Source: Fibrobacteria bacterium (lineage in GTDB: Bacteria; Fibrobacterota; Chitinivibrionia; Chitinivibrionales; FEN-1185). From it: a DNA stretch of 64,000 nucleotides. This document shows positions 21,001-33,000 of this stretch, piece after piece. The stretch is from the NCBI GenBank assembly GCA_037447435.1, contig JBBIGR010000008.1:32001-96000 (forward strand), written 5' to 3'. A program made the position numbers. Position 1 is the first letter of the stretch. Each line of letters starts with the position of its first letter.

Positions 21001-24000
21001 CTTATGGAAACAACCGGAATGAGGGAGCAGACTATTACCTACTCCCAATTCCAAACGCTTATTAATTCTCAAGATGCACGAATCGTGAAAATGGAGGTCG
21101 TTCTTAAAGGGATAAACCGTGCATCATTGCACGGGGAGGTGGCTGATGCCGCTTCGTTGACAAAAGTTCTCGGTTCAAAAAACCAGCCGGCAGTCAAAAT
21201 GTTTACCGTGATACTGCCTTATATTGATTCACCCATGCTAAAAGAATGGGATGCTCGTGGTGTACAGTACACTTTTGTACCGGAAAAAATGAATTGGGGT
21301 GATTTGGCCTGGAATACTTTGCCATGGCTCATTTTTATGGTGTTATTTTGGGTTTTCATGTTGAGACAGATGCAATCCGGGCAAAAGGGCGTGTTCTCTT
21401 TTGGAAAAAGCCGTGCAAAACTTCATGCGATGGACCGGCCACAAAACACCTTTGCGGATGCGGCAGGGCTTGATGAGGCAAAAGCGGAACTTGAAGAAAT
21501 CATTGAATTTCTTAAAAATCCTCAAAAGTTCAAACGGCTAGGTGGAAAAATTCCAAAAGGCGTTTTGTTGCTCGGGCCGCCGGGTACAGGAAAAACTCTT
21601 TTGGCTCGTTGTGTTGCAGGTGAGGCGGGAGTTCCATTTTTATCAATGAGCGGTTCGGATTTTGTCGAGATGTTTGTCGGTGTCGGCGCATCTCGGGTGC
21701 GGGACCTGTTCGAGACAGCAAAGCGAAATTCACCCTGCATTATTTTCATTGACGAAATAGACGCCGTTGGCCGTCAGCGCGGAGCGGGGCTTGGAGGAGG
21801 TCATGATGAACGAGAACAAACACTTAATCAAATTCTTGTCGAAATGGACGGGTTTGAAGTTAATTCTGGCGTTATCCTTATAGCTGCAACCAACCGTCCC
21901 GATGTTTTGGATCCTGCACTTTTGCGACCGGGGCGATTCGACCGCCAGATCGTTGTTGATGTGCCTGATATTAAAGGGAGGGAAGGCATACTAAAGGTAC
22001 ACGTGAAAAACGTTCCCCTTGCCCCTGACGTCAATCTCCTTGTTATTGCAAAAGGGACTCCGGGGTTTGTCGGAGCGGATCTTGCGAACTTAGTTAATGA
22101 AGCTGCGCTTATGGCTGCCCGATTCGGACAAGAAAAGGTTACAATGCTTGACTTTGAGGAGTCAAAAGACAAAGTCCTTATGGGCGTTGAACGTAAGAGT
22201 ATGGTTTTGTCGGACATCGAAAAAAAGAACACGGCTTATCATGAAGCGGGGCATGCAATATGTAATTTGCATTGTCCCGCATCGGACCCATTGCACAAGG
22301 TTACCATTATTCCTCGTGGTCGTGCTCTTGGGGTGACGTTTTCATTGCCTGATGAAGACAGGCATAGTTATTCGAAGGATTTCCTTATCGATCGCATATG
22401 TATTGCCATGGGTGGTCGTGTTGCAGAAGAAATTGTTTTCAATGCAATGACAACCGGGGCTTCGAACGATATTAAACAGGCAACTAATCTTGTACGTAAA
22501 TTGATATGCGATTATGGAATGACGCCCGAATTGGGGCCGTTATCCTACGGTGAAAAAGACGAACAAATTTTCCTGGGTCGTGAGTTCAATAGACATCGCG
22601 ATTATTCTGAAAAAACTGCGGAAGTAATTGATTCTCTAATGCGGCGTCTTGTTGAGGAGCAATATGCAAGAGCAAAGACGATTTTAACGGAACACCGAGA
22701 TGAGCTTGACAAGCTTGCAAGTGCTTTATTGGAGTATGAATTGCTCGATCGGGAAGATATCCTCAAAATCATTAAAGGGGAATTGCTTGAAACGCCGAAA
22801 AAAACTAGGTCGGTTATCAAACAGCCGATAAAAATCGAAAAAACAATTCTTCAGGAAAATACTGAAGATACGCCGAACGTATCCAAAGAGGATCCGAAAG
22901 AGACAGAGGGTGATTCATCTAAACCCAGTCAAGGGTAATTTTTTTTTTCGGTCAAAGCAAATAAGTGAACATTGCTTCATTAACAGGCACACTTTTATAG
23001 TGTGCCTGTTTTTTGAAATGGATGTTAATCGTTCAAACTGCTGAAAGAGACAAAATCAGGGATGCATCCTGTACTTGAAAAACGTTTTTCTGTACTTGGC
23101 ATTGTAAACGTCACTCCAGACTCGTTTTTTGACGGCGGAAAATATGCAACGACAAAACAGGCTGTTGATCACGGACTATCTCTTGCAAATGATGGTGCCG
23201 ATATTCTTGATATCGGCGGTGAGTCGACTCGGCCGGGAGCAAAGCAGCTTAGTGTTGAAGAAGAACTGGCAAGAGTTATTCCCGTTGTATCGGCCTTATC
23301 AAAACTCATTCAAATTCCCCTTTGCGTCGATACGACAAAAGCCGCTGTTGCTGAAGCAGCAATAGAATCTGGTGCTACTTGGATCAACGACATAAGCGCT
23401 GGTCGCTTCGATTCGCGCATGCCCTGTGTAATTGCCAAGAATCAATGTGCAATCATCCTAATGCATAGTAGACATATCCCCGAAACAATGCAAAAGGCAC
23501 CAATTTATAAAAACGTCATTTCCGAAGTTTCTGCCGAATTGCTCCAAAGCGTCGACCTTTTTTGTTCCGCTGGCGTTTTACGCGAAAACATTTTGCTTGA
23601 TCCGGGGTTAGGATTTGCGAAACGTCTTGAAGACAATGTGACAATTCTTTCAAAATGCGAAAAATTTGTATCACTGGGATTTCCTCTTTGTATAGGTGCC
23701 TCCAGAAAATCGTTTATTGGGTTTATCACACAACGAGAGGCCGCAGATAGACTTCCTGGTAGCCTGGCATGTGTTGCAGCAGCATTTTATAAAGGTGCCC
23801 AAATATTTAGGGTACATGACGTGAAAGAAACTGTGGATTTATTGACCATGCTCGAGGCAATTAGGGATCATTAAACCCGGTTGTTGCGGATGTATTACCG
23901 GAATCTGTCTAATTTGCGAAAAAATCCAAATTCATGATTAAACCTTTTTAAAGAATAGACAATGGCTGAAAAAAGGAATAAAATTATCATCATAAGCGTA

Positions 24001-30000: not shown

Positions 30001-33000
30001 TTTATTATTTCATGAGTAAAAAGGTTAGTCAAATGAATCAGGCTTGGCATAGCTTCGGTGTTTTATATGGAGAGCGAAACCGGGCCCAAAACCTGAACGT
30101 ACATTTCGATCCTTCTTTCTTAGACTGGTTGTCGCATTCTTTTGATTATAATACATCGTATGGACAAAGCAAGACTACGATAACTAACGATACTACCGAT
30201 TATTTAAATCTGAAGTCCGATGCTACTTTTAAATTGACAAGTACCTTAAATATGGCGAATTTGTTCAAGAATTTTTCAACGGGGTTTTCAAGCATGAAGG
30301 CGCTTGCGGAAACGTTCAATTCGATAGAAAAAGGCATAGAAAAAATAGCATTGACAAGCATAACTTTCGACTATTCTGCAAAAGCATCGGTGGCCAATTA
30401 TTATTTGGATCCTGCCACCGTGGAAGGTACTGGTGCCGATCTTGGCAGGAGTAAATGGAATTTCTTTCTGTACCAAGTCGGGATGTCGGGCCGGTCGGGA
30501 AAAAATATTTGGAATATCGTTACTGGAGATATGGACGACTATGCATTGGGCGGCATGCGGTTTCGCGGATATAATCCCAATATCAATGGCCAGGATCAGC
30601 GTACCAGCGATAAGACGTATGGTATTACTACCAATTTTGCGTTGCCTGAACCCATTGATCTTCGGATCACATCGATTGGTTTAAAATGGGGAAACAGCTA
30701 TGTTATAACTCCAGATACTACTAAGATTGACAGGACCACGACATTTCCGGACTTTTCGGTGCAGGCACAAACCGGTTTGTTGAATAAATTACAAATTGTT
30801 AACAGGAACGCGAACGCTGTTCAGGTGACATCCGGGTTTAATTATGTTCGAAAACAGCAAGAACGCAACACCGGTACCACTCCGGCAGATCTTGATATAG
30901 TGACCTCAAAAACATATTCTATGACTCCTCTTTTTGGCGTCGACGGCACTTTAAAACAATGGCCGGTAAATATTTCTTATGCGCATACCTGGACAATTAA
31001 GACTGATAGCAGCAGTAAAACGAATTCGGGCACCAGGACTACCGATCATGATAATAAACTCAATATTCGCTACGAAATAAGCAAAGCTAGTACGGGGAAG
31101 GATGAGTTCAAATTCCTTATGTGGACCATTCCAGTTAAGGGACGAGTAGAGACTGGGTTGGAAGGGGATTTTGCCACCAGTAAAGTTGAATCAAAAACTA
31201 CAGATCAGTCCGATTATAGTACTACAGCAGATTCCTGGACATTGCAAATATCGCCGCATGCCTCGTACGATTTTACCGAAAATATTACTGGAGAAGTTAA
31301 GTATACGGGTACAAGAAAAAAAGAGATTCCTCAGACAACGTCATCACATATTTTCTCTCTTTCGGTCACTATTCGATTTTAGCCAGGATTATCCTGTCTA
31401 AAATCGAAACGCCCTTATATATATTCATTTTATAATATATATCTTTAAGGATAAACGTCCTGCATGGGTGAGACCCCACGAATTGTTTGCAAGGAATAAA
31501 TTTCATGGGAAAAAAGATTCTTTTTACTGCAACGCCCACTGAAAAACGGGCAGCGCTTCTTGATAATGAGCGGGTAGTTGAACTTGTTGTTGAACGTCCC
31601 GATAGCTTGAAAGTTGTCGGCAACATATATCGCGGAAAAATTGTTTCCATATTGCCTGGCTTACAGGCAGCGTTCGTAGATATAGGCCTCCAAAAGGCTG
31701 CGTTTTTGCATGCATCGGATGTTGATCCTTCCTTATTGCTTGACGAAGGAGATGCTTCGCTTGAACGTTACACAGAACAAAACAATAATAAGCGAAAACG
31801 CATTGTTCGTATTCCTATAGAAAAGGTTCTTGAAGAAGGACAGGAGATCCTTGTTCAGGTTATTAAAGAGCCTATAGGTACAAAGGGTGCGAAAGTTACG
31901 ACGCAAATCAGTTTGGCTGGAATGTTTCTCGTTTTGGTACCTGATGCAAATTTTATCGGAGTTTCTAAAAAAACCAGTGACGATAAGCGGCGCCAAAGGC
32001 TAAAAAAGCTCATTGCTTCATTAAAACCTCCCGGGGTTGGCTTCATTGTAAGAACCATTGGTCTTAAAGTTGCTGAACCAGAATTTGTTAAAGAAATTCA
32101 AAGCTTATGCTCCAAGTGGAGAAATGCCCAGGACGAGGCCTTACGCGGGGCTGCACCCAAATTGGTATACAGGGAAATGGGTATTACAACCAGGGTTATT
32201 CGCGATTTGTTTTCCGAGGATGTTACTGAAGTATATGTTGATCAAACCGATGATTTTGCGGAAATTCAGTCATATTTAAAGGTCATGTCGCCGGAACTGT
32301 GCCAAAAAATAGTATTATACAACGACAAGCCGCCTTTGTTCGATAAGTTCAATATTGAAAAAGATCTGGAGCTATCTCTAAAACGTAAAGTATGGCTTAA
32401 AAGCGGCGGCTATATTCTTTTCGATCATGCTGAAGCCTTGCTCGCCATAGATGTTAATACGGGAAGAAATGTCGGACGCAGCAATCTTGAAGATACGATT
32501 TTTAAAACCAACTTGGATGCTGCACATGAAATAGCTCGCCAGTTTCGCTTGCGCGACATCGGGGGCATTATTGTTATTGATTTTATAGATATGGAAAAAG
32601 CCGAGAATCGTAGGCGAATTGAAGACGAAATGCATAATCTCTTGAAAAAAGATCCGACCGTAACCGATTGCACTGGATTATCCAAGTTTGGTCTTATGGA
32701 AATCACCAGAAAACGTGTACGGCCCGAATTACAGGAATTGTTTACCGACGTTTGTAATGTTTGTAATGGAATTGGCTGGGTGTTTTCGCCGGCAACCGTT
32801 ACTTCCAGAATCGATCGATGGCTCAATCGCGCAGATGCGAAAGGTACACCGCGTGAGCTAGTTTTAGCAGTGAACCCTGCGGTAAAGGCCTATCTTACCA
32901 AAGAAAACAGCCAAATGCTTAAGAAGTTGGAAATTGAACATAATTTCCATCTCAGCGTCGTGGAGGATGAAGATATCGATCAGGATGATTATGAATTTTA

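Follow-up and report, generated by a model that had tools for sequence, protein, structure and literature searches.

Reviews place the system of type IX secretion (T9SS) across the FCB group as a whole, listing no components, and the GldLM motor is regarded as an essential, defining component. Partial T9SS gene sets may already be noted by McBride and Zhu 2013 and by Veith 2017. The closest described systems are those of the Bacteroidota (Flavobacterium johnsoniae and Porphyromonas gingivalis), with which the Fibrobacterota share SprA/Sov, a PorV-family barrel, PorU, a PorZ-like protein, Skp (OmpH) and type-A CTD cargo. In contrast to these systems the Fibrobacterota have no detectable GldK, GldL, GldM or GldN, no PorP-type match to a Bacteroidales profile and only generic TPR matches for SprE, and their PorV carries a propeller. 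The genera Melioribacter and Ignavibacterium are likewise reported to have SprA and PorV without other T9SS proteins (PMC11705866). A motor-less SprA/PorV has already been remarked for two Ignavibacteria genera, although in the accessible part of that paper this is a one-sentence BLAST remark, with no survey of Fibrobacterota and no description of a PorV insert. The supplements of PMC4793230 and PMC11705866 may list components genome by genome. According to the available text of PMC4793230, a standard T9SS detection model found the system in Bacteroidetes only. For Fibrobacter succinogenes T9SS export is inferred by proteomics only (available text of PMC6851124). Where an entire phylum has the pore, the carrier and the sortase and yet no motor that can be recognised, the question of how energy reaches the translocon can be tested in a second and simpler setting. 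Such a phylum also bears on the surface display of cellulases and chitinases by Fibrobacter and its relatives.

The sprA locus and the outer-membrane module

The window analysed is a stretch of 64,000 nt (contig JBBIGR010000008.1, positions 32,001 to 96,000) of the genome here called G000. The features are collected in Table 1, where coordinates without a contig prefix are positions in the window.

Table 1. Features of the sprA locus, and the porU and porV genes
Feature	Position	Strand	Basis
tilS-ftsH-folP housekeeping block	19314..23874	+	domain/family matches, relatives' loci
g01198, single-pass inner-membrane protein, 363 aa	23962..25053	+	FGE-sulfatase domain, orthologues
ATGA overlap of g01198 stop and sprA start, 4 nt	25050..25053	+	sequence
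sprA/sov, T9SS outer-membrane translocon, 2110 aa	25050..31382	+	TIGR04189, PDB 6h3i_A
rng (RNase G/E family)	31487..33043	+	domain/family matches
PorU	C1:118584-122699		
PorV/PorQ-family gene	C11:32581-35085		NF033709

The assignment of SprA made in an earlier note on this DNA is borne out by a TIGR04189 score of 510 bits (cut-off 200) and a match to PDB 6h3i_A (E 9e-23), and the family is present in all 81 Fibrobacterota genomes. PorU (500 bits against a cut-off of 420) and the PorV/PorQ-family protein (178 against 90), both previously reported, are also found. The latter scores 125 bits with the PorV equivalog model NF033710, under its cut-off of 250, and its structure is nearest to PorV. 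The module further includes PorZ-like and M6-like attachment proteins and a Skp (OmpH) homologue. The cargo is indeed of type A, but the 50 sorting-domain proteins counted before are too few: the 150 candidates scored, out of 210, gave 120 matches to TIGR04183 at E<=1e-3, and a CTD profile built from this genome's own matches hits the tails of 214 of 3804 ORFs and none of the reversed tails. The closed 1.6-Mb genome G042 encodes SprA, PorU, PorV and seven cargo proteins, and has no GldL-shaped gene.

The rng gene lies 3′ of sprA in several orders (loci L040, L042, L053, L116-117, L372, L374-378, L381 and L387), and this arrangement is more widespread than that of g01198 5′ of sprA. It is a housekeeping gene and probably not a component of the machine. 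Among 17 further genomes no envelope gene is common to the sprA neighbourhoods.

Search for the motor and ring

GldM exceeded the cut-off in none of the 251 genomes of the phylum sample, and GldL (GldL_N) and GldN in none of 151. The absence of all three from this genome and of GldM from the phylum, claimed earlier, holds in a four-fold larger sample and in a closed genome, and positive controls worked. For GldK, the best score of the model was 118 bits against 350 (one FGE paralogue and 29 other proteins scanned). Nothing from the GldK/GldN ring was over cut-off, with a GldN model that also misses the divergent gene of G278. A broadened GldL profile, which in a leave-out control recovered three GldL proteins of 16-27% identity (E 1.5e-4 to 3e-3), gave nothing convincing in 261 genomes, and its best E in G000 and G042 was 0.79. 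Seven weak matches occurred in six of the 261. One of these (L397) reads as an MFS-like transporter, and the other six, judged from the match table, are partial, two of them with stops. A search of the ESM Atlas from a GldL, skipping its own Pfam family, returned low-scoring unnamed clusters only. As far as the profiles and the architecture rule described below reach, the Fibrobacterota appear to have neither a GldKN ring nor a GldLM motor.

The GldLM motor could be present and too divergent for sequence profiles, which we consider unlikely. Divergence can be fast: the G278 operon falls under every cut-off (GldL_N 23 bits against 24, GldM 38 against 180), and as neither the profile of the GldM N-terminus nor that of GldN detects it, the sensitivity of the profiles is limited. 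The motor is also essential in the studied Bacteroidota (available part of PMC10994853). Against a hidden motor stands a sequence-independent rule based on the architecture of GldL, tuned on known GldL (it passes 33 of 36) and applied to mechanically called ORFs. It selects none of the 1449 ORFs of the closed G042. Of the 4516 ORFs of G000 it selects two, but no GldM-like gene comes after either of them, so that no L-M pair is seen. Six unannotated envelope proteins shared between genomes were inspected, and none is GldL- or GldM-like. Of the earlier proposal that this T9SS runs without the motor or with an unrelated energiser, the absence of recognisable PorKLMN stands, with a very divergent GldLM as the alternative to it.

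The one notable GldM match in the phylum (G247, E 1.4e-11) was rejected as a motor. It is a stand-alone 214-aa C-terminal-like domain without gldL; the contig is short, the match lies close to its end, and the bin carries 5% contamination. Similar stand-alone paralogues occur in one Bacteroidia genome. The motor profiles gave nothing over cut-off in 121 Marinisomatota genomes, and the best E in G251 was 0.155, at limited sensitivity. SprA without detectable GldM or GldN was found in all three tested genomes of other FCB phyla, and the condition is therefore not special to the Fibrobacterota.

The protein encoded upstream of sprA

The FGE-sulfatase domain of g01198 and its 4-nt overlap with the start of sprA, both described in the earlier note, are seen here, and from its sequence the overlap is one of translational coupling in this genome. 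Among relatives of the same order the spacing ranges from overlap to about 350 nt, with ORFs called from the first start. The protein begins with a basic N-terminus, followed by a hydrophobic helix (residues ~8-29), a low-complexity linker (~35-110), an Ig-like domain (113-194) and a minimal Cys-rich FGE/C-lectin fold of about 165 residues (199-362). It had been called a lipoprotein. None of 35 aligned orthologues has a canonical lipobox (19 have some cysteine within residues 11-45), and Cys20 is unconserved and lies in the middle of a continuous transmembrane helix. The protein forms a stalk anchored in the membrane and bearing a minimal FGE fold, and is neither a lipoprotein nor PorK. With PorK/GldK (PDB 9mzu) it shares an FGE-like fold that does not have the catalytic function of FGE, but it is anchored in the inner membrane, carries an Ig domain and some ten conserved cysteines, and has no large insertion. 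There is no match at E<=0.001 to NCBIfam, TIGR03525 included.

A role as substitute for PorK or PorM, in which an inner-membrane stalk would hold out an FGE domain for SprA to dock on and pass on force, is very improbable. In its favour, the topology is like that of TonB or GldM, an orthologue (E<=2e-41) is present in 77 of 81 genomes, the fold class is that of PorK (Z 16.6), and within its own order the gene mostly adjoins sprA. Yet PorK is outranked in the structural comparison by CalU17, TvpA, ToxD and EgtB, only 161 of the 445 residues of PorK align, and there is no room in the domain for the ring-forming InsH insertion (described in the available part of PMC12421860). The helix is a poly-Leu stretch in which no polar residue is conserved. 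The gene adjoins sprA in 34 of 37 genomes of its own order and in two of 44 from other orders (36 of 81 overall, read from match coordinates, with 21 loci inspected directly), and the arrangement is thus not kept across the phylum as had been stated. Its usual setting is the tilS-ftsH-folP block; most families retain this attachment, and a cdaA-like gene frequently intervenes. It is also missing from the closed G042 and the 98%-complete G034, although both have SprA and PorV. No other genome among the 81 lacks an AgmX/GltG-type protein as these two do, which points to a place for g01198 in another envelope system. With the wrong anchor, no ring-forming insertion, adjacency mostly within one order and absence from two high-quality genomes, the implied PorK substitute coupled to sprA throughout the phylum is not supported. 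The protein is probably not a core T9SS part, and may be a bystander, or no more than an accessory in a single order. When its periplasmic part was modelled together with the propeller of PorV and an N-terminal piece of SprA, the predicted complex scored 0.00, which weighs neither way.

The propeller of PorV and the source of energy

The PorV model (pLDDT 87) is a 14-strand barrel with an N-terminal hatch. Its top match is F. johnsoniae PorV (6h3i_F, Z 34.8, rmsd 3.2, 316 residues aligned; 8gl6_F, E 1e-16), which has the same barrel and hatch; the Fibrobacterota protein differs in having roughly 430 additional residues between the hatch and strand 1. In the predicted model these form a seven-bladed propeller (residues 46-475), including a LysM-like helical subdomain for which the LysM match is weak (three of 32 members, best E 0.022). 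If the LysM is real, a wall anchor would impede a carrier that shuttles. Reg_prop and PorV domains are both present in all 32 aligned members, and propeller-PorV is found in all 81 genomes at E<=1e-8. In the model long loops follow the odd strands and tight turns the even ones, so strand 1 should start in the periplasm, and the insert would face the periplasm. A propeller-PorV that is universal across the sampled phylum, on a protein thought to be pulled by the motor, is new here, and provides a concrete experimental handle. The insert is missing from the best PorV match in five of five genomes outside the Fibrobacterota (ORFs of 372-458 aa). In other phyla, genomes with SprA and no motor encode an insert-free PorV, so the insert does not in general stand in for the motor.

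Our tentative explanation is a variant T9SS, consisting of the outer-membrane module alone, without recognisable GldKLMN. Sequence shows its parts: SprA the pore, PorV the carrier and PorU the sortase, with the PorZ-like and M6-like attachment proteins and the CTD cargo. The propeller may be a built-in handle in place of the ring-SprE chain, and one generic ExbB/ExbD-TonB-type 5:2 proton motor of the cell, a putative partner, would pull it. In Flavobacterium the energy-requiring step is the pulling of loaded PorV off SprA (available part of PMC10994853).

That source also describes cargo loading as energy-free, which fits a reading with no dedicated motor. Here cargo would bind PorV without energy, and a ratchet made up of spontaneous dissociation, cleavage by PorU and attachment to lipid would release it. 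The insert would not be a handle for pulling but would take the place of SprE/SkpA as an anchor or a chaperone platform. The weak LysM similarity, and a LysM-PorV cluster from Eisenbacteria that scored 0.79 and is no more than a lead, are consistent with anchoring. No ExbB, ExbD or TonB gene adjoins sprA in the inspected loci or porV in G000, which also counts against a generic motor, and none of the T9SS genes inspected has a motor gene linked to it; beyond the order of G000, the porV neighbourhood inspected was that of G042. On the other hand, Flavobacterium cargo is trapped without the motor (same part of PMC10994853), and about 200 CTD proteins await export in G000. We regard the ratchet as rather improbable.

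For a generic motor pulling PorV, candidates are present: there are eight ExbB/MotA-family genes in G000 and four to seven in each of five other genomes (five in G042). Against such a motor, the ExbB/ExbD-type clusters seen have plausible jobs of their own (Tol-Pal, flagellum, TonB receptors, Agl-Glt-like). The last correspond to the Agl-Glt core (AglRQS, GltG) described for Fibrobacter in the available text of PMC3169522, with the same ExbB-ExbD-ExbD and GltG/AgmX-type clusters, three of them in G000. The AgmX/GltG-type family occurs in 79 of 81 genomes, but its absence from G034 and G042, despite their SprA and PorV, means that Agl-Glt cannot be the universal T9SS energiser.

A broader proposal, which we hold to be doubtful, is that the pore is older than the GldKLMN motor and open to an unrelated energy chain, and that an ExbB/ExbD-TonB-type motor pulls cargo out via the periplasmic PorV propeller in Fibrobacterota (and Zixibacteria), giving a second, mechanistically distinct class of T9SS that would export the cellulases of fibre degraders in the rumen and termite gut. 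Inserts like that of PorV are found in Zixibacteria, where two of ten looked-up proteins are so named and eight are unnamed.

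A type IX secretion system across the Fibrobacterota

The Fibrobacterota type IX secretion system (T9SS) is a genuine variant, spread through the whole phylum, of a known system. Those of its parts that could be placed in the genome under study (G000) are listed in the table. The earlier note had assigned SprA/Sov to the window, and both the profile score and the PDB match bear this out; the homologues that bear names come from Chitinivibrionales and Chitinispirillaceae. A PorU-like paralogue and a PorZ-like gene are also present, each scoring below cut-off. The type-A sorting domain of the cargo (CTD) was found 120 times at E<=1e-3 (TIGR04183, with 150 of 210 candidates scored), and a profile derived from the genome's own matches places it on 214 of 3804 ORF tails and on no reversed tail. 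On either side of the sprA block (window 1-15166 and 33790-64000) lie large clusters for the synthesis of polysaccharides, which include Wza/Wzc, Wzz and a UpxY-type antiterminator and might supply PorU with its lipid-linked anchor.

Genes of the T9SS and the neighbouring FGE protein in G000
Gene	Location	Basis
g01198 (363 aa)	window 23962-25053	FGE-sulfatase match
sprA/sov (SprA, 2110 aa)	window 25050-31382	TIGR04189 510 bits, cut-off 200; PDB 6h3i_A E 9e-23
PorU	C1:118584-122699	profile match
PorV/PorQ family	C11:32581-35085	over cut-off
PorV/PorQ family, second and weaker	C6:77056-78147	69 bits, cut-off 90

Searches for GldL, GldM and GldN

The earlier note held that the system lacks the PorL/PorM (GldL/GldM) motor and PorN (GldN), and the absence of a recognisable motor is solid. 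GldM (TIGR03517) exceeded its cut-off in none of 251 Fibrobacterota genomes; among 151, none had a GldL_N match or GldN over cut-off. At E<=0.01 GldM was matched in four of the 251. The sole strong match among them is an isolated domain of 214 aa, carried by a short contig in a bin with 5% contamination. The built-in control genomes gave no positive, so separate positive controls were made. The identical search of a Bacteroidota-centred sample gave GldL_N over cut-off in 36/151 genomes, and GldM and GldN were both detected in one Bacteroidia genome.

A GldLM motor might be present but diverged beyond recognition, which we regard as unlikely. The Bacteroidota-centred sample contains a very divergent gldL-gldM-(gldN-like)-gldK cluster in genome G278 (L368, contig C186) with two relatives (L389 and L390), all under the curated cut-offs, with a short GldM (380 aa) and gldK last. 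The GldM N-terminal and GldN profiles overlook even the G278 genes, a limit to their sensitivity. When a GldL profile is built without the divergent sequences, it still retrieves all of them, with E values from 1.5e-4 to 3e-3 for an equal database size. With G278-type sequences included it finds nothing in G000 or in the closed Fibrobacterota genome G042 (best E 0.79), and over 261 Fibrobacterota genomes the broadened profile gives weak partial matches in six (best E 0.001). Against a diverged motor stands a sequence-independent rule for GldL architecture, tuned on known GldL and accepting 33/36 of them; in G000 it passes 2 of 4516 ORFs, neither with a GldM-like gene downstream. G042, 1.6 Mb on a single contig and searched in full, carries SprA, PorV, a sortase of the PorU type that at 324 bits stays under its cut-off, and a CTD on 7/1203 ORFs, yet none of its 1449 ORFs passes the rule, so an assembly gap does not explain the missing motor.

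The absence is partly anticipated and, judged from sequence, SprA without a recognisable motor is wider than the Fibrobacterota. SprA was over cut-off in all five further FCB genomes tested, and three of these (possibly incomplete drafts titled Marinisomatota, Calditrichaceae and Zhuqueibacterota) gave no GldM, GldN or GldL_N match. One study describes PorV, SprA and Plug in Melioribacter and Ignavibacterium, with the other T9SS proteins absent (PMC11705866).

PorV with a propeller insert and the source of energy

The PorV gene on contig C11 encodes 834 aa and has an orthologue in 81/81 Fibrobacterota genomes, with propeller and PorV domains both found in all 32 aligned orthologues. In the model of the mature form (pLDDT 87, pTM 0.78), residues 1-45 make up the hatch and residues 46-475 a propeller of seven blades together with a helical subdomain. 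The third part is a barrel of 14 strands, and the structure that matches it best is PorV of F. johnsoniae (Z 34.8, rmsd 3.2, 316 aligned; E 1e-16). Odd strands of the model lead into long loops and even strands into tight turns, so strand 1 and the insert should begin on the periplasmic side; with general barrel topology, this predicts a periplasmic propeller. The best PorV match in each of the five other FCB genomes, by contrast, joins hatch straight to barrel. A single long chain holding hatch and barrel occurs in 50 of the 150 best representatives; ten distant ones were looked up, two being named Zixibacteria and eight having no taxon. Three Atlas clusters share the propeller-PorV architecture, their members mostly Fibrobacterota. 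The helical subdomain has a weak LysM likeness (3/32 members, best E 0.022). The protein scores 125 bits as PorV and 52 as PorQ, and a PorQ-like anchoring role is possible. The predicted periplasmic propeller is the variant's new feature, and one open to test; in the titles and abstract openings found by searches of an open-access library, neither a PorV with a propeller nor a motor-less T9SS of Fibrobacterota came up.

Within the porV locus (L404, C11:25496-35681) a 206-aa membrane-anchored protein conserved in the order (Chitinivibrionales) is encoded upstream. Downstream lie two genes with homologues in G042: one encodes an M6-like protein that bears a CTD (NF052323, below cut-off), the other a peptidase-MA/TolB-propeller protein of 1100 aa.

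In F. johnsoniae, the binding of cargo to PorV within SprA costs no energy; the step that requires it is driving PorV off the translocon, for which a moving track gripping the carrier was proposed (PMC10994853). Fibrobacterota have no recognisable track and motor, but their carrier is enlarged on the side where the force would act. The simplest mechanism, put forward tentatively and at somewhat less than even chances, would be that the insert offers a direct handle to a generic 5:2 proton motor. G000 carries eight ExbB/MotA-family genes, and a further five genomes have 4-7. Besides Tol-Pal and MotAB, G042 retains two ExbB-ExbD-TonB sets, of which one is common to G000. No ExbB/MotA-type gene is linked to sprA in the inspected loci or to porV in G000, so we infer, rather than observe, a motor pulling through the insert. 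A ratchet without a motor, in which the insert would serve as an anchor or as a platform for chaperones, seems less probable than such a handle and about as probable as a diverged GldLM.

An ExbB-ExbD-ExbD-TonB locus followed by a TonB-dependent receptor with its own N-terminal TonB_C domain is kept between the distant G042 (L104:9930-12671) and G000 (C2:107638-114110), at 38% identity. Three Agl-Glt-like clusters of G000 encode TPR proteins, ExbB, an ExbD pair and a GltG/AgmX-type protein (C8:19720-32243, just upstream of the window; C39; and C4:181471-185124).

The FGE protein upstream of sprA

The stop of g01198 overlaps the start of sprA by 4 nt. Orthologues occur at E<=2e-41 in 77/81 Fibrobacterota genomes. 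The position next to sprA, taken earlier to be phylum-wide, holds within the order (34/37 genomes by coordinates) but not in the others (2/44). In the largest family of the latter, probably Fibrobacteraceae, adjacency is 0/31, and the orthologue lies downstream of tilS-ftsH-folP and a gene we take to be cdaA-like. Among inspected sprA loci rng is the more widely kept neighbour. Nor is g01198 the lipoprotein once supposed: a canonical lipobox is found in 0/35 orthologues (19/35 have some Cys at residues 11-45), and their N-terminus is basic and runs into a long poly-Leu helix. In the predicted model (pLDDT 80.5) a disordered linker connects the helix (2-33) to an Ig-like domain, after which comes the compact FGE/C-lectin fold.

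Equivalence to PorK was rejected. Only 161/445 residues of PorK align (Z 16.6), and PorK ranks below CalU17, TvpA, ToxD and EgtB, at rank 47 in one search. The PorK ring is built by a 150-residue InsH insertion (PMC12421860), which the smaller FGE domain of g01198 could not house. A role as the coupler is very improbable, and g01198 is a side issue for the motor question. Its orthologue is absent from G042 and from the 98%-complete G034, the same two of 81 genomes that lack the GltG/AgmX-type family (present in 79); with n=2 this joint absence is a hint.

The linkers of the orthologues (e.g. L052:5302-6588) are rich in D-S/T-L/A/V/I motifs, with up to ~20 tandem ADSLAR repeats, and resemble the O-glycosylation motif of Bacteroidota. 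A second Cys-rich FGE-domain protein of this type lies in the window (17780-19024, minus strand), having a signal-like N-terminus and small repeated beta domains in place of the stalk. On contig C24 (46242-57225, L409) two giant TPR proteins flank a 1025-aa protein with about ten Ig-like (CHB_HEX_C) repeats and a g01198-type FGE domain.
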